The notes under the pieces are model-generated. The model searched no databases. It was not told the DNA's origin and saw only the letters and a program-made list of their open reading frames with translations. Positions 2,498-37,256 of a stretch of 64,000 bases of DNA are shown one piece after another. Source of the DNA: an uncultured Flavobacteriales bacterium (GTDB taxonomy: Bacteria > Bacteroidota > Bacteroidia > Flavobacteriales > JBLHRE01). The first letter of the stretch is position 1, and every line of letters starts with the position of its first letter. The position numbers were made by a program, and so were the translations under genes. The stretch lies in the NCBI GenBank assembly GCA_937139155.1, contig CAKZPI010000021.1, forward strand, positions 81,339-145,338, written 5' to 3'.

Positions 2498-4987
2498 ATG
2501 AACCACCTAGCAAAACTTCTCGTCTTTTTGCCTCTATTGTCTTTGGGGCAGTTTCCTGTGATCGATTCTTTTCAGGACGGAAATTTTCACCTCAATCCTA
2601 AGTGGGTTGGAGATTCCGCTTTTTTTGAAGTGGAGGAAGAAGAACTTAAGCTTAAAGGACCCAGTCAATCCGATAGCTTGGGTTTATTTACAGCTTTTAA
2701 TCCTGCGGATAGCCTGATTGAGTGGAGGTTTAAGATGCGACTTTCCTTTTCCCCTTCTCAGAACAATCAGGCTTACTTTTTTCTCTGGACCAACGGAGAA
2801 AAAAATGAAAATTTTGAAGGCATTTTCCTCCGTTTAGGAAATTCTGGCTCGCCCGATGTATGGAATTTGGTGCATCAAACCGGTTTCTCACAAGAAATTT
2901 TAGGTTCTGGTCAAAAAAATTTCCCAAATTCTTCAGGACAAATCTTCCAAAGTAAAATAACCTATAAATCAGGGATTTGGACTGTTTTTTTTGATGCTTT
3001 TGGAGGGCCTTATTTTCAAGAGGAAATAAAAATTTCAAAAAATTTTCAATTTTCTTTTGGATTTTTAGGATGGGTTTGTAAATTTAGTCCCAGTAATGCA
3101 AACGCATTTTCACTCGATGAAGTTTACGCAGGTAAAATAATCGAGGATAATGAGCCACCGATCTTTGAACACATTACTTCGTTTCAAGATTCAATTCGAA
3201 TCAAAGTAAACGAACCCATTGACACCACCCGGTATCCAATCATTTTATGGAACCAAGATACGCTAGAGCTGATTCTGCGTACACGGGAAATCATTGCAAA
3301 ACATTACTCGGGGGTAGAATGGCCAGGTCTTATGCGGGTGGTTCTTTTATATGACTTGGCCGCGAATTCTACCCCCTTCTTTGATTCTCTTCTCACCCCC
3401 GAAAATCCGAAACAACATAGCCTCCTCTTTACTGAGGCCATGATTGATCCTTATCCTACCGTAGGTCTTCCAAACCAAGAATACCTTGAAATAACCAATA
3501 ACTCACCCCAAGATTTGAATCTCAAATGGTTCACCCTCGAGGTCAACCAAAAGAGAATCCCCCTCCCTGATTTTGACCTTTCTGTGGGGGAAAGCATTTG
3601 CTTAAATGAAGGTCTATTCCTCCAAAGCGATTCAATTTTTCTTAACCTTGATTACCTTCCTAGCCTGACCAATGATGAGCTGAGTTTAGGACTTTATTGG
3701 AACGATTTCCCCATTCATCAAGTTCATTTTAAAGCTTCTGATTTTGAAGATGAACCAAAGTCTATGGGAGGCTGGTCCCTGGAAATTCCAAGCTTGAACC
3801 AGGCTTGTGTACAAGGTTTTGATTGGGAGTTTTCAAATCAACCCACCGGTGGAAGCCCAGGTTTTCTAGATCCTCACCCTTTTAAAGACTCCGATCAAAG
3901 CCTTAAAATAAGGTCCTTTTCCATTGATTCAAACCGCACCATTCAGCTTGGGTTTAACCAGTATCTTGAATACTACTCACTTGATAAACTTGAGCTCCGA
4001 ATAAGCCCAAGTATACATCTTGAAAAGACATTTCCTCAAAATCCAAAGGGTGAAGTACGCTTACGCTTTGGCCAGGATTTTGATCCAAATCAAACGTATC
4101 AACTTGAAATCTTTCATGCGAAATCTTGCCAAGGGTCCGGTTTAGATACCCTGATTGTCTTCACCTTGCCTCAAACCCCAAAGTATGGTGATTTAAGAAT
4201 TGTAGAGGTAATGATAGAGCCCAACGAAGACCAGGCTGAATTTCTGGAAATTCACAATCGTAGTACTTTTAGTTTTGACCTGAGCGAATTGAGAATTTCA
4301 GTAAGCTCTGATTCAGAAGCATCGAATTTCTTTGAAGAGATTACATCAAAATCCTATTTAATAAACCCAGGAGACCTTGTTCTCATTTCTGAAGAGAAAA
4401 TGCCTTTGGCCTGTGAAACCGGACTCGGTTATGAAGTAAATCTGCCTGCCCTGTCAAATTCAGGGGTTAAGATTGTTTTGGGAAATCAGTATTGGGAAGA
4501 AATTGATGAAATTTGGGTTGAACCTAGCTTTCATCATCCATACCTTTCCGATTCAAAGGGGCGAAGTTTCATTCGACTGGGTGAGGAGGGGGAGAACCCT
4601 GAAAACTGGCAAACTTGTTTAACGGAGCAGGGATTTAGTCCGGGCTGCAAGGATGGAAGTCCAAGTCAAACTTTCCTGGGTGAATTTCATTTGGAACCAG
4701 AGTATATAAGCCCGAATCTTGACGGGTTTCAAGATTATTCCATTTTATATTATGAGTTTCCGGAGGAGGGATACTTAATGGATATTAGCGTTTGGAATCT
4801 TTCTGGGCAATGGGTTTCCTCACCCGTTCAATCTAAACTTTGCCCTCAACGAGGAGAAATTTCAATTACCGGAACCGGTGAGTCGGGACAAATTTTACCC
4901 TTCGGAAATTATATTCTACTCATACACGCAGAACATAAATCCGGCGAAAGCCTAAGCAGAAAATTACCCTTGATTATTGGTCCATGA
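2498..4987 (+). CDS. secreted protein with two lamin-tail-domain-like segments and an FlgD-Ig/CHU_C-like C-terminus
   Basis: 829 aa with signal peptide MNHLAKLLVFLPLLSLGQ. Two LTD-like stretches are present (NQEYLEITNNSPQDLNLKWFTLE and AEFLEIHNRSTFSFDLSELRI). The C-terminus has ISPNLDGFQDY...ISVWNLSGQWV...GNYILLIHAE, which resembles PNGDG-type Ig-like sorting or adhesion domains. Confidence 0.6.
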   Translation: MNHLAKLLVFLPLLSLGQFPVIDSFQDGNFHLNPKWVGDSAFFEVEEEELKLKGPSQSDSLGLFTAFNPADSLIEWRFKMRLSFSPSQNNQAYFFLWTNGEKNENFEGIFLRLGNSGSPDVWNLVHQTGFSQEILGSGQKNFPNSSGQIFQSKITYKSGIWTVFFDAFGGPYFQEEIKISKNFQFSFGFLGWVCKFSPSNANAFSLDEVYAGKIIEDNEPPIFEHITSFQDSIRIKVNEPIDTTRYPIILWNQDTLELILRTREIIAKHYSGVEWPGLMRVVLLYDLAANSTPFFDSLLTPENPKQHSLLFTEAMIDPYPTVGLPNQEYLEITNNSPQDLNLKWFTLEVNQKRIPLPDFDLSVGESICLNEGLFLQSDSIFLNLDYLPSLTNDELSLGLYWNDFPIHQVHFKASDFEDEPKSMGGWSLEIPSLNQACVQGFDWEFSNQPTGGSPGFLDPHPFKDSDQSLKIRSFSIDSNRTIQLGFNQYLEYYSLDKLELRISPSIHLEKTFPQNPKGEVRLRFGQDFDPNQTYQLEIFHAKSCQGSGLDTLIVFTLPQTPKYGDLRIVEVMIEPNEDQAEFLEIHNRSTFSFDLSELRISVSSDSEASNFFEEITSKSYLINPGDLVLISEEKMPLACETGLGYEVNLPALSNSGVKIVLGNQYWEEIDEIWVEPSFHHPYLSDSKGRSFIRLGEEGENPENWQTCLTEQGFSPGCKDGSPSQTFLGEFHLEPEYISPNLDGFQDYSILYYEFPEEGYLMDISVWNLSGQWVSSPVQSKLCPQRGEISITGTGESGQILPFGNYILLIHAEHKSGESLSRKLPLIIGP

Positions 4988-5023
4988 ACCTTAAGAAAAT
5001 AAAGCTGCGTATTTTCGCCGAGC

Positions 5024-6856
5024 ATGAAATACAAAGCCTCCTTAAAAGACCATATTCGAATACTGCCTAATAAGCCAGGGGTATATCAATATTATAATAA
5101 GGAGGGATTGATCTTATACATTGGCAAGGCCATTGATCTCAAAAAGAGGGTGTCGTCTTACTTCACCAACAGCAAGGGCCATAGCAATAAGATTAGAAGG
5201 TTGGTGTCTCAGATTGATACCATAAAGCATATTGTGGTAGAGACCGAAACCGATGCTTTGCTTTTGGAAAACAACCTGATTAAAAAGTATAAGCCTAGGT
5301 ACAATGTAATGTTGAAGGATGATAAATCTTATCCTTGGATATGCATTAAAAAGGAAGCTTTTCCGCGGGTTTTTGCCACCCGTCAGGTGATTAAAGACGG
5401 GTCTGAATATTTTGGTCCCTTCATTTCAAGCCGGATGATGCACACGGTGCTTGAGTTAATCAAACAGATTTATCCTTTGCGAACCTGTAATTATAACCTT
5501 AGTGAGGATAATATCAATGCAGGTAAGTTTAAGGTTTGCCTTGAATATCATATTGGCAATTGCTTAGGTCCGTGTGAGGGAAAGCAAAGCGAGGAGGATT
5601 ACGATGTTTCCATTCAAAACATCCGGCATATACTCAAAGGAAACCTCTCAGAAGTCTCAAAACATCTTCATGGGAAAATGATTGAATATGCAGAGCGTCT
5701 TGAGTTTGAAAGGGCTCAAATGATTAAGGAAAGGCTTGATATTTTGGATCGGTACCAGGCCAAGAGCACCATTGTTTCCCCGACCATTAATAATGTTGAC
5801 GTTTTCGCCATTCTCAGTGATGTAAAGGCGGCCTATATTAACTTTCTAAAGGTTGTAAATGGGGCTGTTATTCAGGCCCATACCCTAGAAATGAAGAAGC
5901 CCTTAGATGAGTCAGATGCGGATTTATTGGCTACGGGGCTGACTGAAATTCGGGAGCGATTTGATTCGAATGCAAAGGAGGTCATCCTTCCCATTGAGCC
6001 TGGCTTCAGTTTAGGCGATGACATAACCGTTACCATCCCGCAAAGGGGAGACAAGAAAAAACTATTGGAGCTTTCCATGCGAAATGCCCTCTATTATCGA
6101 AAAGAGAAATGGGAGCAGGTGAGTCATACAGACCCTGAAGCCCATACCAACCGATTGATGGAGCAGATGAAGAAAGACCTTCGCTTGCCCAAGGAGCCCA
6201 GGCATATTGAATGCTTTGACAATTCAAACATTCAAGGAACCAATCCGGTGGCAGCCTGTGTGGTATTTAAAAATGGGAAGCCCTCTAAAAAAGACTATCG
6301 ACACTTCAACATAAAAACCGTTGAGGGCCCTGATGATTTTGCCTCTATGGAGGAAGTGGTTTACCGAAGGTATAAGCGCCTATTGGATGAAGACCAGGAT
6401 TTGCCCCAATTGATTGTTATTGATGGGGGAAAAGGACAGTTGAGTTCGTCAGTGAAAAGCCTTGATAAACTTGGCTTGCGCGGGAAAATTGCCATCATAG
6501 GCATTGCTAAGCGGTTGGAAGAAATTTACTATCCCTTAGACCCAGTTCCATTATACCTTGACAAGCGATCGGAAACCCTTCGAATCATTCAACAACTCAG
6601 AAATGAAGCCCATCGATTCGGCATTGAACATCATCGATCCAGAAGAACCAAGGCCGGAATTAAAACGGGATTAACAGATATTCCTGGAATTGGTAAGGCT
6701 ACGGCGGAAAACTTGCTCAAGCACTTTAAATCCATTAAAAGATTGAAAGAAGCAAGTTTGGATGAAATCATTCAACTTGTAAACCAAGACAAAGCCCATA
6801 AAGTTTACGATTATCTTCACCCAGAAAACGAGTCAAATCAGGGAAAGAAAACGTAA
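5024..6856 (+). CDS. uvrC: excinuclease ABC subunit C
   Basis: 610 aa. GIY-YIG N-terminus (GVYQYYNKEGLILYIGKA), a UVR-like segment, and a C-terminal helix-hairpin-helix (IPGIGKATAENLLKHF). Confidence 0.95.
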   Translation: MKYKASLKDHIRILPNKPGVYQYYNKEGLILYIGKAIDLKKRVSSYFTNSKGHSNKIRRLVSQIDTIKHIVVETETDALLLENNLIKKYKPRYNVMLKDDKSYPWICIKKEAFPRVFATRQVIKDGSEYFGPFISSRMMHTVLELIKQIYPLRTCNYNLSEDNINAGKFKVCLEYHIGNCLGPCEGKQSEEDYDVSIQNIRHILKGNLSEVSKHLHGKMIEYAERLEFERAQMIKERLDILDRYQAKSTIVSPTINNVDVFAILSDVKAAYINFLKVVNGAVIQAHTLEMKKPLDESDADLLATGLTEIRERFDSNAKEVILPIEPGFSLGDDITVTIPQRGDKKKLLELSMRNALYYRKEKWEQVSHTDPEAHTNRLMEQMKKDLRLPKEPRHIECFDNSNIQGTNPVAACVVFKNGKPSKKDYRHFNIKTVEGPDDFASMEEVVYRRYKRLLDEDQDLPQLIVIDGGKGQLSSSVKSLDKLGLRGKIAIIGIAKRLEEIYYPLDPVPLYLDKRSETLRIIQQLRNEAHRFGIEHHRSRRTKAGIKTGLTDIPGIGKATAENLLKHFKSIKRLKEASLDEIIQLVNQDKAHKVYDYLHPENESNQGKKT

Positions 6857-7474: not shown

Positions 7475-7901
7475 ACCTAGATTTTTTACCGAAGAGGAAG
7501 AGGCAATCATTGTCAAAGCCATTCAAGAAGCCGAGAAAATGAGCTCGGGTGAAATTAAGGTGCATGTTGAAAGACATACCCAGAAAGATAATTTTGCCCG
7601 TGCCCGGGAAGTCTTCGAGTCTCTTGGAATGACCAAGACTGAAGACCGGAATGGAGTTTTGTTTTACATGGCCATTGAAGACCATAAGTTTTCAATCTTA
7701 GGAGATAAAGGCATCCATGAAAAATGCCCGAAAGGGTTTTGGGATGAGATTCGAAATGAGGTTCAAGATAATTTCAAGGCTGGGAAATTTGTAGAAGGCC
7801 TTTGTACCGGAATCAGCAAGGCCGGGAAAGCCCTAAAAGAATATTTTCCACACGCTCCAGAACAAGGCAACCAATTATCCGACCAAATTTCAAGATCATG
7901 A
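7467..7901 (+). CDS. TPM (TLP18.3/Psb32/MOLO-1) domain protein
   Basis: 144 aa. TTG start overlaps the lemA stop. Family-typical N-terminus is EEEEAIIVKAIQEAEKMSSGEIKVHVE. It follows lemA, as in the common LemA-TPM-TPM arrangement. Confidence 0.8.
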   Translation: MTKPRFFTEEEEAIIVKAIQEAEKMSSGEIKVHVERHTQKDNFARAREVFESLGMTKTEDRNGVLFYMAIEDHKFSILGDKGIHEKCPKGFWDEIRNEVQDNFKAGKFVEGLCTGISKAGKALKEYFPHAPEQGNQLSDQISRS

Positions 7902-28578: not shown

Positions 28579-31365
28579 ATGGAGCTTGACTTTCAGAAAA
28601 TAGATAAAAACTGGCAATCGTACTGGAAAGAAAAAGAGGTTTTTAAGGCCTCTAACCAAAGCGATAAACCTAAGTACTATGTGCTTGATATGTTTCCTTA
28701 CCCCTCTGGGGCGGGATTGCATGTGGGCCATCCCTTAGGCTATATTGCTTCTGATATTTACGCCAGATTTAAAAGACATAAAGGGTTTAATGTATTACAC
28801 CCCATGGGGTTTGATGCCTTTGGCTTGCCTGCCGAGCAATATGCCATTCAAACCGGTCAACATCCTGCAATAACTACCCAGGATAATCTTACCCGATACA
28901 AGGCTCAAATGAACCAACTTGGATTTAGTTTTGACTGGAGCAGAGAGGTGCAAACCTGTGATCCGAATTACTACCGTTGGACCCAATGGATATTCCTTCA
29001 GCTATTCAATGCCTGGTATGATGAAGCCCAGAACAAGGCACGTCCTATTCAAGATTTAATCGAGCATTTCGAGGCTCATGGAACTCAGGGCTTAAGAGCT
29101 AGTCAAGGGGAAGAAATCCATTTTTCAGCTGAAGAATGGAAGGCCTTCTCAGAAGCAGAAAAAGCAGAGAGGCTTTTGAATTTTAGATTGGCTTATCGGT
29201 CTGAATCCATGGTGAACTGGTGTCCGGCTCTGGGTACTGTTCTTGCCAATGATGAGGTAAAAGACGGGCTTTCTGAACGAGGAGGGCATCCGGTGATTCA
29301 GAAAAAAATGATGCAGTGGAGCTTGAGAATCTCGGCATACGCTCAGAGGCTATTAGATGGTCTGAATGAAATCGATTGGTCTGATGCCTTGAAAGAATCA
29401 CAAAAAAACTGGATTGGTCGATCGGAAGGTGCTTCCGTTCAATTCCAAATCAAGGGGCATGATAAGAAGCTTGAGATATTCACCACACGTCCAGATACCA
29501 TTTTTGGAAGTAGTTTCATGGTTATGGCTCCTGAGCATCCTTGGGTGGGTGAAATCACTAGTGAAGCTCAAAAAAAGGAGGTAGAAGCCTACCAAACCGA
29601 GGCTGCAAAAAGGTCTGAACGTGACCGGATGGCAGATACCAAGTCTGTGACCGGGGCTTTCACGGGGGCTTATGCCTCCCATCCTTTCACGGGCAAGGAG
29701 ATACCGATTTACATCGCGGATTACGTGCTTGCCAATTATGGAACTGGAGCCGTTATGGCTGTACCTGGGCATGATTCAAGAGATTATGCTTTTGCTCGAA
29801 AATTTGACCTACCCATATTGGAGGTGGTTGAAGGAGGAAACCTGGAAGAGGCCGCATATGAGGCAAAATCAGGCAACTTGGTGAATTCTGATTTCATCTC
29901 CGGAATGAAGGTGGAAGAAGGTATTCAAAAGGTCATCCAAGAGCTGGAGAAAAGAAATCTCGGCAAAGGAGAAATCAACTACCGACTTAGAGACGCTGTT
30001 TTTGGAAGGCAAAGGTATTGGGGTGAACCCATCCCCATTTATTTCGAAAACGGCATTCCGAAACCAGTTAAGGATTCACACTTGCCCTTGGAGCTACCTG
30101 AAGTAGATAAATACTTACCTACCGAAGATGGAGAGCCTCCATTGGCCCGTGCTGAGAAATGGTATTACCACCCCGATAAAGGCTTGGTGAATCAAGAAGA
30201 AGGGTTTCCATTGGAAACTACAACCATGCCTGGATGGGCAGGTTCCTCTTGGTATTGGCTAAGGTATATGGATGCTGGAAATTCAGATGAATTTTTGAAT
30301 CCTGAAATAGAATCGTATTGGAATTCGGTGGACCTATACATAGGTGGGGCTGAACATGCTACTGGGCATTTACTTTACAGCCGTTTCTGGCAAAAAGCTT
30401 TGAAAGACCTTGGTTTCCTTTCGGCCGAAGAGCCTTTCAAAAAACTGGTAAACCAAGGAATGATTCAAGGGCAATCAAGTTTTGTTTACCGATTGAAAAA
30501 CGAGAATACCTTTGTTTCACACGGACTGATAGACAAATACGAAACCATTGCCATCCACGCTGATGTTTCAATGGTACATCAGGATGTTTTGGATCTAGAA
30601 GCCTTCAAAGCATGGAGAGAAGATTTCAAAGACGCCAAATTTATTTTAGAAGACGGAAAATACATCTGTGGCTCTGAGGTTGAGAAAATGTCTAAGTCGA
30701 AATTCAATGTGGTAACCCCGGATGAAATCATTGAGAAGTTTGGGGCAGACACCCTGAGAATGTATGAAATGTTCTTAGGCCCTCTTGAGCAACATAAACC
30801 TTGGAATACCCATGGAATCACAGGGGTTCATGGGTTTTTGAAGAAGTTTTGGAAGCTTTATTTTGACGAGAAGGGCCTAAGGGTTCAAAACTCGAAACCT
30901 AGTAAGGAGGCTTTGAAAGCTTTGCATACCCTTTTGAAAAAGGTGAACGAAGATTTTGAAAATCTTTCCTTCAATACATCGGTTTCGGCCTTTATGATTT
31001 GTGTTAACGAGCTTTCTAAATTAAAGATAGACTCTAGAGAAATTCTAGAGCCTTTGGTGGTAGCACTTTCCCCCTTTGCCCCTCATATTTCAGAAGAGAT
31101 ATGGAAAAACTTGGGCCATGATGGAGGGATTTCCTTTGAAGCATATCCCCAAGCTGAAGAAGCTTTTTTGATTGAGTCAAGCCATGAGTACCCGGTGAGT
31201 TTCAACGGAAAAATGAGGTTTAAAAAATCCTTTGGCTTAGACCTTTCTAAGGATGAAATTGAGAAGGCAATTTTGGTCGATGAACAAAGTCAGAAATACC
31301 TTGAGGGGAAAACCCCAAAGAAGGTAATTGTGGTTCCGAAGCGGATCATCAATATTGTGGTTTAA
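28579..31365 (+). CDS. leuS: leucine--tRNA ligase
   Basis: I placed the start at the ATG at 28579 ([16 protein letters not shown], the typical LeuS N-terminus). The HIGH motif is HVGHPLGY and the KMSKS motif is KMSKSK. About 928 aa. Confidence 0.96.
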
Positions 31366-32153
31366 GCAATTTCCTCCTCCAATTTTTCAAGGAGTGAATC
31401 TAGTTTACTCAGGTCTTTCACCCGCTTGAGTTTATAAACCGGAATGGAATTTACAAGATGCCCAACCTGTAAAAAGGTCTGGGCTTCTTTTTTTCCATGT
31501 AGATAGAAAAGAGGTTTTACCTGGGCCAAAAGACTTTGAAAAGCATCTTGTCCGGTGAGCTTTTCAATTCCTGCCTCTTCCGCAAAATCAAGAATGAATA
31601 AGGCCGAAAGTGGTCCGGGTGGATTTTTATCTACCTCAAGATCTAGGCTGTACTTATCGTGGTCTGGATGAATTTGAGTTTTTTCTTCCTCAGGGTTTCC
31701 GAAGTAATCAAGGGCGTCTCCCCAAAGCCTCATTTGGGCCAGTCCTGGAAGAAGTTCATTTGAGGAGTGCACATCTTTGAAGGCAATGAAATCGTCAGAA
31801 ATCAAATCATGTCCTCTTCTCATCATGGCTTTTGCTGTGGTTGACTTCCCCATTCCGCTAAAGCCAAGGAACCCTATAATTTTCCCATTTACTTTTAGGC
31901 AAGAACCGTGAAGTACAAGATGCCCCCTCATGAAGAGTTGAGTGGTATATGGCGAACCAGAAGCGTAGACCGCAACTCGTTTAGGGTCAACGCCCTTTTC
32001 AGGAAGGGTGTCCATTTTACCTCCCTCATAAATAATGAACCTACCAACGTCTTCCCAAAACAATTCAATCCGGTTTTCAAAGACCTGGAAAAAAGAGCCT
32101 TCCCTAATTGGGGTTTCAGAGGTTTTCAAATCGGACGATTTCATGGTATTCAT
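31362..32153 (-). CDS. HPr-kinase-like (HprK-related) kinase
   Basis: 263 aa. [41 protein letters not shown] matches the HprK C-terminal-domain P-loop pattern (G.SG.GKS...RGH.L..DD). The start overlaps the B2-like gene by 38 nt. Confidence 0.75.
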
Positions 32154-32580
32154 TTAAATCGGGTAAGTTACCCAGTAAAATTTCATCCTTTTTCAAGAGC
32201 CAGGCATGTGCCTTAAATTCTTCATGATCCTTTCTTACCCCAATAACCACCGAGGTTTTAATTCCTTGTAATTTGCATTGCATATGTCCGGAAAGCGCTT
32301 GATACAAACAGGGGCGACCCGCAGGGGCAAAGTATTTACAGGCCCGTTTATTGGCCAAAACCAATTGGTCAAGACTGAAATCTTCATCCTTTTTTCGAGA
32401 ATCAAGTTCAGTTTTGAACCATTCTTTAAATTCTGGAAAGGACTTTTTCTTGAGCTCTTTTCTAAGAATCATCACATCGTAAAACGCCTTGTGAAAGGCC
32501 CTTCTTTCCTTCCCTCTTAATTGCAGGTATTTAATTAGGGGAAACACAGGCAACCAGTCCTTCTTTTTCCAAATCCGCAA
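32116..32580 (-). CDS. lasso-peptide B2-like transglutaminase-fold cysteine protease
   Basis: 154 aa. The Cys (GRPCLYQALS, C91) ... His (KAHAWLL, H125) ... Asp (KKDEIL, D132) spacing matches McjB-C-terminal/B2-type proteins. It overlaps the PqqD gene by 50 nt. Confidence 0.75.
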   Translation of the reverse strand: MRIWKKKDWLPVFPLIKYLQLRGKERRAFHKAFYDVMILRKELKKKSFPEFKEWFKTELDSRKKDEDFSLDQLVLANKRACKYFAPAGRPCLYQALSGHMQCKLQGIKTSVVIGVRKDHEEFKAHAWLLKKDEILLGNLPDLNEYHEIVRFENL

Positions 32581-32812
32581 TCAATTCTTTAAGGTCTTGG
32601 GCAGCAGTTTCCTTTTCTACATCAAATTCTGAGGTAATTTTATCGATCAGGTCCTCCAAGGTTTTCTCCTCTTGTATTAAGTCCCATATAAAACTACCAA
32701 CCTCATTTAATGTATAGTAAATGCCTGTTTCTGTGTGGAGTATGGCTTTCTCGCCTTGAATATCACAATGAACTTGTTCACTGCTTTGCTTAACTTTCAA
32801 CTTCAAATTCAT
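32531..32812 (-). CDS. PqqD family protein (RiPP recognition element, lasso B1-like)
   Basis: 93 aa. GIYYTLNEVGSFIWDLIQEEKTLEDLIDKI...AQDLKELIADLEKEGLV is the canonical PqqD/RRE pattern. The ATG overlaps the upstream stop (ATGA). Confidence 0.8.
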   Translation of the reverse strand: MNLKLKVKQSSEQVHCDIQGEKAILHTETGIYYTLNEVGSFIWDLIQEEKTLEDLIDKITSEFDVEKETAAQDLKELIADLEKEGLVACVSPN

Positions 32813-33348
32813 CTTGGGTGTCTATTTGGCTGGAAAGATGCCATTATTTTTTGATGCGTAAAAAGAGATTTCTGCAAATTGTTTTCCAGCGAGAGCCAAA
32901 GGATTAACCCATATTCACTGAGGTAGAAAAAATGGTCGTGGAAGAATTCAAAAACCGATTGAAACTCAAGCCAAATCCAGCTTAAGCTGACCAACCTAAG
33001 CGCTTGAAATAGGAATAGTAGTACGATGCCAAAGCTTATTTTACCAAGGTAGGAAGTTAAAGAGCTTGAGAGAATGATGCTCAAACCAAGGAAAAGGGAG
33101 AGGGCTTTCCATCCGGTACAAGAGAAAACAATTTCAAGACATGGGGTTTCATTTATAATGACCCATGAATTATGAATTTGGTAATCAGAACTGAGAAAGA
33201 AAAGGCTTAAAATCCAGGCTGTAGTTTTGCCCCAAAACTGAATTAGTAATTCTTGAAACCCAGGAATTTTAGGAGGAAGAAAGGCCAATGCCAGAAAGGT
33301 GAATAGGCCAAGGTTAAGCTTTATCAGGAAAAGTTTTAGGTGGTTCAT
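32809..33348 (-). CDS. exosortase/archaeosortase-like polytopic membrane protein
   Basis: 179 aa from the ATG at 33348; the track ORF starts at TTG 33381. About 5-6 TM. Numbering from 33381: LEIVFSCTGWKALSLFL (C88) resembles the exosortase CSGlrsl motif, then ALRLVSL (R129, 41 aa later), then EFFHDHFFY (H148/H150). This is the Cys/Arg/His order and spacing of the family. Assignment is from motif reading only. Confidence 0.6.
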   Translation of the reverse strand: MNHLKLFLIKLNLGLFTFLALAFLPPKIPGFQELLIQFWGKTTAWILSLFFLSSDYQIHNSWVIINETPCLEIVFSCTGWKALSLFLGLSIILSSSLTSYLGKISFGIVLLFLFQALRLVSLSWIWLEFQSVFEFFHDHFFYLSEYGLILWLSLENNLQKSLFTHQKIMASFQPNRHPR

Positions 33349-33427
33349 ACCTCGAATATCGGAAATTTTTAAAACTTGCAATCCTTGCCTGAAATTATAA
33401 TACTTTAGCAGATTAAATCAGAGAACT

Positions 33428-34304: not shown

Positions 34305-34535
34305 ATGGAAGAAAACAAAGGATTTATATTCGAGAGAATCAATTATATCATACTCGCCGTAGGCGTTGTAGTCATGGCCCTTGGCTTTGCTTTGATGGTA
34401 GGAGGAGCAAGCGAAGACCCCAATGTATTTAATCCGGAGGTTTATAGCTTTCGAAGAATTACCTTGGCCCCCATTGTAATTGTTTTGGGCCTTGGCATTG
34501 AGCTTCTGGCCATTATGTACCGTCCGAAAAAATAA
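34305..34535 (+). CDS. DUF3098-like small membrane protein
   Basis: 76 aa with two TM. It is the conserved partner directly downstream of ftsX in Bacteroidota. Confidence 0.7.
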   Translation: MEENKGFIFERINYIILAVGVVVMALGFALMVGGASEDPNVFNPEVYSFRRITLAPIVIVLGLGIELLAIMYRPKK

Positions 34536-35329: not shown

Positions 35330-36051
35330 TGCAGGAGGTTAATCCAGATAATCCCTACCGGAAAGGACAGGTTTTATTGTTTGATAAACCTGAAACCTGG
35401 ACTAGCTTTCAGGTGGTGAAGCTTGTTAAAACCCGCCTTAAATACGATTGTGGTTTAAAGAAAATCAAGGTTGGGCATGCCGGTACTTTAGATCCTTTGG
35501 CTACGGGACTCCTCATAGTATGCACCGGTAAGAAAACCAAGGAAATTCAAGACTTCATGGGTCAGGAAAAGGTGTATGAAGGATCTTTGGTTTTAGGAGC
35601 CACCCGACCCTCAGTAGATCGAGAAACCGAAATAGATCAAGAATTTCCAGTTGATCATATTGGTTCGGAAATGATTGAGAAGGTTCGTCAGAGTTTTCTG
35701 GGCGAAACCGATCAATTTCCACCTTCTTTTTCCGCGGTTAAAAAAGACGGGAAAAGAGCCTATGAATTGGCTCGGGAAGGGAAGGAGGTTGACCTGAAGT
35801 CGAGGAAGGTTGTTATCAAAGAGTTTGGAATTTGCCCCATGGGAAACAACGAATACGCTTTTCGAGTGGTTTGTTCGAAAGGAACCTATATCCGAAGCTT
35901 AGTGCGTGATTTCGGAGAAAAATTAAACTCCGGAGCATGGATGAATACTCTTCGGCGCACAGGCATTGGATCCTACTCGGTTCAAGATGCCATTCACCCC
36001 AAAAGTTTTGCGCCCAGCAATGATCAAGGCGCTTCCTCTTCAGTAGAATAA
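35329..36051 (+). CDS. truB: tRNA pseudouridine(55) synthase
   Basis: 240 aa. The catalytic motif is GHAGTLDPLATGLL. Confidence 0.93.
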   Translation: MQEVNPDNPYRKGQVLLFDKPETWTSFQVVKLVKTRLKYDCGLKKIKVGHAGTLDPLATGLLIVCTGKKTKEIQDFMGQEKVYEGSLVLGATRPSVDRETEIDQEFPVDHIGSEMIEKVRQSFLGETDQFPPSFSAVKKDGKRAYELAREGKEVDLKSRKVVIKEFGICPMGNNEYAFRVVCSKGTYIRSLVRDFGEKLNSGAWMNTLRRTGIGSYSVQDAIHPKSFAPSNDQGASSSVE

Positions 36052-37256
36052 TGCTGGCTATAAGGGATGACCGCAGGGTTACCTAAGAAGCCTAATTCGT
36101 CTAAAAGGGTTGTAATTAAAGGCCGGTAAAAATGGAAGAAGAACCTACTTCGATCAAGAGGTTCTGTTGTATACAGCAGGAAGTCTAAATAATGGATTCC
36201 TTTAAAATAAGAAGCTGAATAAGGAACCAGATTATCCGCATAATCCGCGCAGAAATACCAGGTTAATCCATCTCTAGACTTAATCAATGCAGGGAATGTG
36301 TTTTCAATTCCCATACTGGCCAAAAGGCTATCACCGCTGGGTAAAGTTTCAATTCTAAAAACACCCATGCTCTCAGCATCGGTGCCCGCTCTGGGGTAGG
36401 TAACATCAAACCAGAAGGGGTATGGAACCCTTTCTCTTGTACCGTAATGTTCTGAAAAAACGGTGTCAACCTCAATATGGGGCATGGGGTCTGAAACATG
36501 CACCTCTTCATCGAATACCTCGATCCGCTCCGATTCATGTACAAAGGCCAATCCAGGGCCTTCAAAGGGCCACCTTCCTCCATGTTGCTCTTTGTACCCT
36601 CGAATAAGCCATTTAGGAAGTTCGGGATTTTTGGTAGAGTCTAATTCGTCAAAAAACCGTCCGGTCCAGCCCGACCAGTTTACATTCAGCAATTCCTCAG
36701 CTCGTTGTCGTACGTATCCTCCAGTAGGTGAAGCAAAGGTGTTAAACTCACCCCACATGGGTTTCCCTTGGTCTACCACCCGTTCCATTACCCGTATTTC
36801 ATTCCGCTTTAAGCCACCATAAACAAGAGGTGAATGTTCAGTGAGCAAAGAATCTAAAATCCACTCGTTATAATACACCCCGTAGGTATCGGTGAGGTAG
36901 AGAAGCTCGGTGGTATCTGCAAGGGAGTCTAATTGGTTTCTACTGAAAAACCGCCAATCCCGAGCAATGGGTTTGGGGTGCTCTCTGGGGTCAAAACCGT
37001 AATAATCTTGATTGAAGATGTAATAGCGATTGCTATGATCTACCAATTTCTCATAATTGAGAATCCAGTGAAAAGCTATGTGTTCAAAATAATCTTCGCT
37101 CGGAACAGTTTTGTCAAGAATGGTAACATTGATGGGATGCTCATCACTGGTGGTCCACCAGATGTATGACCAAATGGGTGAGAAAACCAAGAAAAGGAAT
37201 AATACCCGTATAATGGCAAAAACGCCGATTTTCCGAAAGGGTCTGAACTTTTTCAT
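36024..37256 (-). CDS. membrane-anchored hypothetical protein
   Basis: 410 aa with an N-terminal TM anchor (IGVFAIIRVLFLFLVFSPIW) and a large Trp/Tyr-rich globular region. I do not recognise a family. It converges on truB with a 28-nt overlap. Confidence 0.5.
   Translation of the reverse strand: MKKFRPFRKIGVFAIIRVLFLFLVFSPIWSYIWWTTSDEHPINVTILDKTVPSEDYFEHIAFHWILNYEKLVDHSNRYYIFNQDYYGFDPREHPKPIARDWRFFSRNQLDSLADTTELLYLTDTYGVYYNEWILDSLLTEHSPLVYGGLKRNEIRVMERVVDQGKPMWGEFNTFASPTGGYVRQRAEELLNVNWSGWTGRFFDELDSTKNPELPKWLIRGYKEQHGGRWPFEGPGLAFVHESERIEVFDEEVHVSDPMPHIEVDTVFSEHYGTRERVPYPFWFDVTYPRAGTDAESMGVFRIETLPSGDSLLASMGIENTFPALIKSRDGLTWYFCADYADNLVPYSASYFKGIHYLDFLLYTTEPLDRSRFFFHFYRPLITTLLDELGFLGNPAVIPYSQHYSTEEEAP

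Follow-up and report, generated by a model that had tools for sequence, protein, structure and literature searches.

The DNA analysed here is a 64,000-nucleotide stretch from a contig of an uncultured Flavobacteriales bacterium (hereafter the window, 64 kb). Its minus strand carries a compact cassette of four genes which encode, in this order, a miniature protein of the exosortase/archaeosortase superfamily (P0001), a PqqD-family protein of the lasso B1 type, a lasso B2-type protease and a kinase resembling HPr kinase (HprK) (Table 1). All junctions of the cassette overlap. The ATG of the PqqD/B1 gene overlaps the exosortase stop codon as ATGA by direct reading, the B2 gene, whose open reading frame (ORF) is open up to 32580, overlaps the end of pqqD, and the kinase gene overlaps the end of B2. 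On the other side, the kinase gene and leuS are convergent and their 3' ends share 4 bp (31362-31365). Because of these overlaps, and with ftsX divergent 79 bp upstream and leuS convergent, the four genes form one transcription unit which leaves no room for a precursor gene. A sigma-70 promoter scan of the divergent intergenic region was uninformative, the sigma-70 consensus being ill suited to Bacteroidota.

Table 1. The four-gene cassette and its upstream intergenic region (positions in the window)
Feature	Positions	Strand	Basis or remark
Mini-exosortase-family gene (P0001)	32809..33348	(-)	179 amino acids (aa) from ATG 33348; TIGR04178 match, invariant triad, AlphaFold2
PqqD-family RiPP recognition element (RRE) / lasso B1-type leader-peptide chaperone, 93 aa (RiPP: peptide made by the ribosome and then modified post-translationally)	32531..32812	(-)	Pfam PqqD, 77.9 bits (cut-off 23.4)
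Lasso B2-type transglutaminase-core Cys protease, 143 aa from GTG 32547	32116..32547	(-)	NF033537 lasso_biosyn_B2, 56.1 bits (cut-off 33)
HPr-kinase-like peptide kinase, 263 aa	31362..32153	(-)	Pfam Hpr_kinase_C, 37.7 bits (cut-off 33.3)
Divergent intergenic region between cassette and ftsX, 79 bp	33349..33427	(.)	Sole non-coding space for a cassette promoter

The mini-exosortase frame can be extended upstream to an alternative TTG start at 33381, which gives a protein of 190 aa (ORF 33381..32809, minus strand). The NCBI/ENA gene callers retain the ATG (179 aa) and one caller the TTG. Residues are numbered here on the 179-aa form, in which C77, R118, H137 and H139 correspond to C88, R129, H148 and H150 of the longer form. 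An initial annotation, made from the sequence alone and numbered from the TTG, had described a miniature exosortase-like protein with a Cys-Arg-His arrangement. The peptides it quoted (ETPCLEIVFSCTGWKALSLFLGL, FQALRLVSLSW and EFFHDHFFYLSEYG) are all present in the translation, and C88, R129 and H148/H150 occupy the positions it gave. Direct reading of the sequence places the codon of Cys77 (TGT) at 33120-33118, that of Arg118 (AGG) at 32997-32995 and that of His137 (CAC) at 32940-32938. Cys77 and Arg118 are thus 41 residues apart.

The NCBIfam matches of P0001 are limited to eleven exosortase/archaeosortase models, with no other family among them. The family signature TIGR04178 is matched above its curated cut-off (35.0 bits for a cut-off of 23, E=1.3e-8), which bears out the family assignment of the initial annotation. 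The named subfamilies score as follows: XrtX (NF046081) is the best with 40.5 bits (cut-off 170, E=2.6e-10), followed by ArtE (29.9 bits, cut-off 95), ArtB (26.8, cut-off 150), XrtF (TIGR04128; 26.3, cut-off 90) and XrtY (26.1, cut-off 160). The further proposal that P0001 is an XrtF-sized paralogue has to be given up in so far as it points to XrtF: membership is ruled out both by score and by gene context, and the nearest named subfamily is XrtX. A Pfam search of P0001 returned no match, and no curated NCBIfam model was found for the clade formed by P0001 and its closest homologue, P0002. Of the homologues for which the gene surroundings were consulted, these two alone lack a match to the Pfam family Exosortase_EpsH. 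The Cys/Arg/His arrangement goes beyond chance since the NCBIfam matches are restricted to the exosortases and archaeosortases, TIGR04178 is above its cut-off and the residues are invariant (see below). As judged from these profile matches, P0001 is a divergent member of the exosortase/archaeosortase superfamily, a group of Cys transpeptidases/proteases embedded in the membrane. It carries the full catalytic triad and falls outside all named subfamilies.

A HMMER search with P0001 against 1.84 billion representative proteins (E<=1e-3) retrieved only 11 proteins. The ten besides P0001 are 174 to 296 aa long and themselves match the XrtX, XrtF or XrtH models. Six residues, C77, G107, R118, L122, H137 and W151, are invariant in 11/11 sequences (alignment A2). 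No unrelated membrane family matched and the three catalytic positions are conserved throughout, the two points on which the initial annotation had made its assignment depend. P0002 shares 28-29% identity with P0001 (pairwise BLAST E=2e-20) and also exceeds the TIGR04178 cut-off (45.6 bits). The two proteins have in common a glutamate within the last membrane helix (Glu145 of P0001, codon at 32914-32916; LSEYGL in P0001 and VAEYGL in P0002, alignment A2) as well as SCT and HD motifs close to the Cys and His of the catalytic triad. Glu145, SCT and HD are missing from the XrtX-like relatives and may be specificity determinants of the P0001/P0002 clade.

Comparison with the archaeal enzyme ArtA, which is better characterised, gives a similar picture of the active site. 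In Haloferax ArtA, C173, R214 and R253 are required for activity according to mutagenesis (reviewed in PMC9263693). The spacing of 41 residues between C173 and R214 equals that between Cys77 and Arg118, whereas the third critical residue of ArtA is an arginine (Arg253) and that of P0001 is His137, 19 residues past Arg118. ArtA and XrtA are also larger. Their profiles comprise 261-271 positions and P0001 aligns only to the C-terminal half. ArtA substrates carry a PGF-CTERM signal, whereas no such signal was found in the window.

No solved structure of the exosortase/archaeosortase family was found in the PDB. An AlphaFold2 model of P0001 built on the 11-sequence alignment (predicted local distance difference test, pLDDT, 88.5; predicted template modelling score, pTM, 0.78) contains five helices (residues 2-23, 31-50, 75-93, 97-128 and 130-171) and a three-stranded sheet (56-72) just N-terminal to the catalytic Cys. 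Together with hydropathy it confirms P0001 as a predicted polytopic helical membrane protein. Topology was assessed with the positive-inside rule from charge counts over the 11 sequences. The N-terminus (+1.45), the loop 95-103 (+2.18) and the C-terminal tail (+1.4) are assigned to the inside, and the loop 24-32 (-0.64), the loop and sheet 51-76 (-1.27) and the loop 128-138 (-0.91) to the outside, which is consistent with the helices of the AlphaFold2 model. The predicted position of Cys77, His137 and Arg118, the last of these in the outer half of helix 4, is accordingly at the membrane's outer face. The helix 31-50 is probably not membrane-spanning.

The three other products of the cassette are of RiPP type. 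In addition to Pfam PqqD, the B1 protein reaches 73.1 bits with the lasso-specific model NF033536 lasso_PqqD_Bac, just below the cut-off of 80. The B2 protein also matches Pfam Transglut_core3, and its Cys (in PCLYQAL), His (in AHAW) and Asp are kept in an alignment with the B2 proteins of the comparison loci L003, L005, L007 and L008 described below. The kinase carries a P-loop (GFSGMGKST) and an SDD motif which are invariant among its relatives (alignment A1). The initial annotation had coupled the exosortase to RiPP-type recognition and protease genes. As a physical linkage this coupling stands: PqqD/B1 and lasso B2 are joined by the HprK-like kinase, and the association recurs in a second lineage. 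Similarities with other PqqD-containing systems are lower. The PqqD protein matches ScmD (SynChlorMet), GeoRSP PqqD and HPr-rel-A PqqD below threshold, and the kinase gives weak matches to the NCBIfam models HprK_rel_A and HprK_rel_B and a faint one to Pfam ScmC, all far below the cut-offs. The partners in SynChlorMet, HPr-rel-A and GeoRSP are radical SAM or other proteins, and these systems are not known to include a B2 protease or an exosortase.

Counterparts of the last three genes occur in a canonical phospho-lasso cluster found in a Sphingobacteriaceae metagenome-assembled genome (GCA_041743935.1; L005, also L009). Its genes follow the order B1, B2, a SET-domain gene transcribed from the other strand, a kinase, an Asn-synthetase-type cyclase (322 bits with the lasso cyclase model NF033535), a precursor of 38 aa and finally an NTP_transf_5 nucleotidyltransferase. 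The precursor (8634-8750 of L005, plus strand; MKKYNKPQIKKLGKFSKLVRGVGGTSMDAVTNTLLTIS) ends in Ser, has a leader with a YxxPxI motif and may form a Gly1-Asp8 ring. Its presumed penultimate leader position is occupied by Val instead of the usual Thr (KLVR/GVGGTSMD); non-Thr lasso leaders have been reported (PMC10368454). In characterised lasso systems, B1 hands the leader to B2, and the kinase acts ahead of folding, when it phosphorylates the still linear precursor on its C-terminal Ser (PMC8498205). The window proteins are 41% (kinase), 43% (B1) and 30% (B2) identical to those of L005. By sequence comparison, B1, B2 and the kinase clearly appear to descend from a Bacteroidota phospho-lasso cluster, minus the cyclase and the adjacent precursor gene. 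While phospho-lasso clusters of the paeninodin type (such as L005) have these three genes in common with the window, their cyclase, precursor, nucleotidyltransferase and ABC exporter were not found there and the exosortase gene leads the cassette instead.

Loss of the cyclase is not restricted to the window. In L007, a relative of L005, the region 3033-5905 includes intact B1, B2, kinase and NTP_transf_5 genes, and only 117 bp occupy the place where L005 has its cyclase and precursor. The gene call for the L007 B2 is 40 aa long and the full 141-aa frame is open. L007 is therefore an independent cyclase-less B1/B2/kinase module. Another locus, L008, carries B2, B1, a precursor and a kinase, with no cyclase within 8 kb. 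The L008 precursor (7685-7858, plus strand) has 57 aa and ends in TKGGGPVLLDAQGTQFGGGGFS. Between the L008 B2 gene and the B1/precursor/kinase set lies a gene (3762-6704, minus strand) for a repeat-rich secreted protein of 980 aa, which ends in VPTLGRWALIGFVSLLAVVGIVFMRRRRLA, an exosortase-type sorting signal resembling IPTL-CTERM.

The same four genes in the same order surround P0002 in the loci L003 and L004, beside the same ftsX-DUF3098-uppP-truB block and in an unrelated sample. The ftsX side is kept while the other flank differs, the convergent neighbour being leuS in the window and metG in L003. The cassette sources are exclusively metagenomes, one of them from aquaculture seawater in Shandong (PRJEB22134; PMC9710629). 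Neither a word-indexed search with the protein and with the alignment of the two members, nor the HMMER search of 1.84 billion proteins, nor a scan of genome contigs with the kinase alignment, nor scans of metagenome contigs revealed exosortase-type cassettes beyond the lineage of the window and L003/L004. At 90% identity, the clade forms two clusters in a set of about 15 billion proteins.

The four proteins are unequally conserved between the window and L003, which belong to moderately related genomes. Identity is 62% for PqqD, 53% for the kinase, 46% for B2 and 28% for the exosortase, compared with 60-84% for the flanking housekeeping proteins. All four cassette proteins diverge faster than these flanking proteins, and the exosortase is by far the fastest, with a nonsynonymous substitution rate (dN) of 0.81 versus 0.25-0.38 for the flanks, i.e. 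about three times their value. Since the synonymous rate (dS) is saturated in every gene, only dN and the integrity of the ORFs can be used. ORF lengths, overlaps and catalytic residues are intact for all four genes in both lineages. At saturated dS, neutral DNA would have lost ORF length, overlaps, the catalytic triad and a pairwise similarity as high as that of the exosortase pair, which argues for weak but real purifying selection on the exosortase gene.

Several components that might have revealed the substrate were searched for. A tblastn search with the L005 cyclase gave no match in the window or in L001-L004 at E<=0.01, the cyclases of L010-L012 being recovered. Scans for a lasso precursor core (T-x-G...D/E) and a YxxPxL leader yielded nothing credible in the window or L003, the precursors of L005 and L008 being recovered. 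No nucleotidyltransferase or ABC exporter gene lies in the window, and hmmsearch detected no second exosortase gene there. The scan for tripartite C-terminal sorting signals picked out no candidate in the window or in L003 (16.5 kb), with the exception of a DUF3098 protein. Neither a PID-CTERM protein nor an XrtX-associated membrane protein was detected in the window (tblastn and C-terminal signal scan). The expectation that gene context would disclose the substrate is therefore disappointed: the window contains no precursor, no cyclase and no credible sorting-signal protein. Since cyclase and precursor, the two defining parts, were looked for and not found, the operon of the window is not a lasso cluster.

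The DUF3098 protein (34305-34535, plus strand) is a two-helix protein encoded beside ftsX. It ends in a hydrophobic helix followed by YRPKK, is 84% identical in L003 and is the only called-gene ORF of the window that passes a crude C-terminal sorting-signal filter. The family is widespread in Bacteroidota and the protein is probably unrelated to the cassette.

The relatives of P0001 other than P0002 have different neighbours. The nearest are XrtX-like proteins. XrtX resembles P0001 in length (about 170-190 aa), helix pattern and Cys-41-Arg-His triad. It belongs to the PID-CTERM system, with operons composed, in this order, of a PID-CTERM substrate, XrtX and an XrtX-associated membrane protein. 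Locus L013 includes a PID-CTERM protein (32.2 bits, cut-off 26), an XrtX-like protein (163 bits, cut-off 170) and an XrtX-associated membrane protein. In L014, the gene directly upstream encodes an 84-aa secreted protein ending in SIPIDGGLAFFLLAAGATGAVALRNNKKVV, and a membrane protein of 146 aa is encoded downstream. The window lacks both XrtX partners, and the neighbours there are B1, B2 and the kinase. PID-CTERM proteins adjoin P0004 (which follows a PID_CTERM gene), P0009 and P0003, the three cases with PID-CTERM/XrtX surroundings where these are readable, and P0006 is located in an exopolysaccharide locus with glycosyltransferase and priming-transferase genes (one case). Among the homologues with readable surroundings, only P0001 and P0002 have a RiPP-type gene context. 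XrtF resembles P0001 in size and setting, being a mini-exosortase of Bacteroidota. However, it is widespread and accompanied by an exosortase F system-associated protein, whereas the P0001 clade is confined to its two clusters and has no adjoining partner. As the initial annotation had noted, no XrtF-type partner lies beside P0001: its neighbours are the divergent ftsX and pqqD, and the cassette includes no second membrane partner gene. The XrtF substrate is unknown (PMC10936215; bioRxiv 10.1101/2024.12.02.626408), and XrtF and related small Bacteroidota exosortases are important in biofilm formation and surface colonisation (PMC10936215).

A search of the available literature library retrieved no paper tying exosortases to lasso, PqqD, HprK or RiPP systems. 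The association of an exosortase with lasso genes in one operon is a new combination of two known modules, very rare and with thin phylogenetic support. The interpretation we favour, tentatively and with a probability of roughly 0.45, is that the cassette is a lasso-derived, cyclase-less peptide-maturation operon which has recruited a membrane transpeptidase for a C-terminal step at the periplasmic face. A small precursor peptide encoded at an unlinked site would be bound through its leader by B1 in the cytoplasm, where the kinase would phosphorylate it on Ser and B2 would remove the leader. The peptide would then insert into the membrane, and the mini-exosortase, through its Cys77/Arg118/His137 site at the outer face, would cleave or transfer it at the C-terminus, resulting either in release or in attachment to an acceptor. 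In this way the exosortase might stand in for the ABC exporter of the classical lasso pathway, for its cyclase step, or for both.

Several observations weigh against this interpretation. Neither the window nor L003 offers a substrate candidate, whether an ORF with leader and core motifs or, the DUF3098 protein apart, one with a tripartite signal. A step of membrane transit must be postulated, since B1, B2 and the kinase are cytoplasmic and the prediction for the exosortase site is periplasmic. Characterised lasso kinases need a Ser at the C-terminus, which fits poorly with a membrane-anchor signal at the same end. The fast evolution of the exosortase could reflect relaxed constraint. Finally, the cassette is known from two fairly close lineages only (flanking proteins about 65% identical), which makes the evidence for linkage weak to modest, since both cassettes are in effect those of one family-level lineage.

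The partners bring a chemistry that is understood, namely the binding and removal of a leader and the phosphorylation of a small peptide on Ser, and thereby give a concrete lead on possible substrates of a mini-exosortase. A functional coupling would narrow the substrate to a ribosomal peptide with a leader, open to searches and to tests with four genes, and would mean that the lasso machinery can do without its cyclase when rewired. Without such a coupling, the locus is an orphan exosortase next to a degraded lasso cluster.

Among the alternatives, the least improbable is a split lasso pathway, which we consider unlikely. B1, B2 and the kinase would serve a cyclase and a precursor whose genes are located in another part of the genome, and the exosortase would be an accessory (for export, immunity or release) or act on an unrelated substrate. 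The independent recurrence of cyclase-less B1/B2/kinase modules in L007 and L008 is consistent with this arrangement, as is the fact that lasso tailoring enzymes may be encoded outside their cluster (PMC8498205). However, neither the window nor the 16.5 kb of L003 yielded a cyclase homologue, and a split pathway gives no reason for the translational coupling, seen in both lineages, of a membrane Cys transpeptidase to B1.

On a bolder reading, the cassette would stand for a separate class of ribosomal peptide maturation, new, cyclase-less and built from lasso stock. Once B1/B2 have removed the leader and the peptide has been phosphorylated, the membrane-embedded exosortase would carry out the class-defining step: C-terminal cleavage together with macrocyclisation or with transfer to a lipid or glycan. 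This appears improbable. Were it true, a RiPP role and a substrate of peptide size would both be without precedent among exosortases.

Decay is a somewhat less probable explanation still. The cassette would be the remnant of an eroding lasso cluster that has lost its cyclase and precursor, with an unrelated orphan exosortase-like gene sharing the transcript. The absence of both genes from the window, the rapid evolution of the cassette proteins relative to their flanks (the exosortase above all) and the extreme rarity of the cassette would fit such a remnant. Against it, frames, lengths, overlaps and catalytic residues have been kept in both lineages despite saturated dS, and the two exosortases still recognize each other in BLAST at the E-value given above.

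It is marginally harder still to credit that the exosortase has replaced the cyclase outright, serving as macrocyclase or ligase in a novel RiPP class. An acyl-enzyme formed at the C-terminal site would be resolved by the N-terminal amine exposed by B2, giving a head-to-tail or lariat product, or by a lipid or polysaccharide acceptor. The exosortase is present exactly where the cyclase is missing from a cassette otherwise orthologous to a lasso biosynthetic gene cluster, and its family is regarded as transpeptidase-like, ArtA linking cleavage to lipid attachment (PMC9263693). Nevertheless, the site is predicted to be periplasmic while B1 and B2 are cytoplasmic, no substrate is known, the gene position differs (the exosortase precedes B1 while the L005 cyclase follows the kinase) and such a reaction is without experimental precedent.

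That P0001 is an ordinary sorting enzyme of the XrtF/XrtX type, acting on surface proteins or in an exopolysaccharide-linked process and adjacent to RiPP genes by coincidence, would suit its XrtX-like relatives and the PID-CTERM or exopolysaccharide surroundings of P0003, P0004, P0009 and P0006, but is very improbable in view of scores far under the XrtX and XrtF cut-offs, the absence of a PID-CTERM or XrtX-associated membrane protein from the window, the pqqD overlap kept in L003 and the lack of an Exosortase_EpsH match that sets P0001 and P0002 apart from the other homologues whose context was looked up.

Other properties of the region were also considered. The GC content of the cassette (38-43%) is not distinctive with respect to its flanks (40-47%), and composition offers no evidence of horizontal transfer. 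A role in anti-phage defence was discarded as PADLOC identified nothing relevant. Rfam revealed no non-coding RNA in the window. Further along the conserved ftsX-DUF3098-uppP-truB block, a gene at 36024-37256 (minus strand) overlaps the end of truB. It encodes a 410-aa protein with an N-terminal membrane anchor which matches no Pfam, NCBIfam or PADLOC model. The protein is found at the same position in L003 with 69% identity and is a conserved, uncharacterised protein of this lineage.

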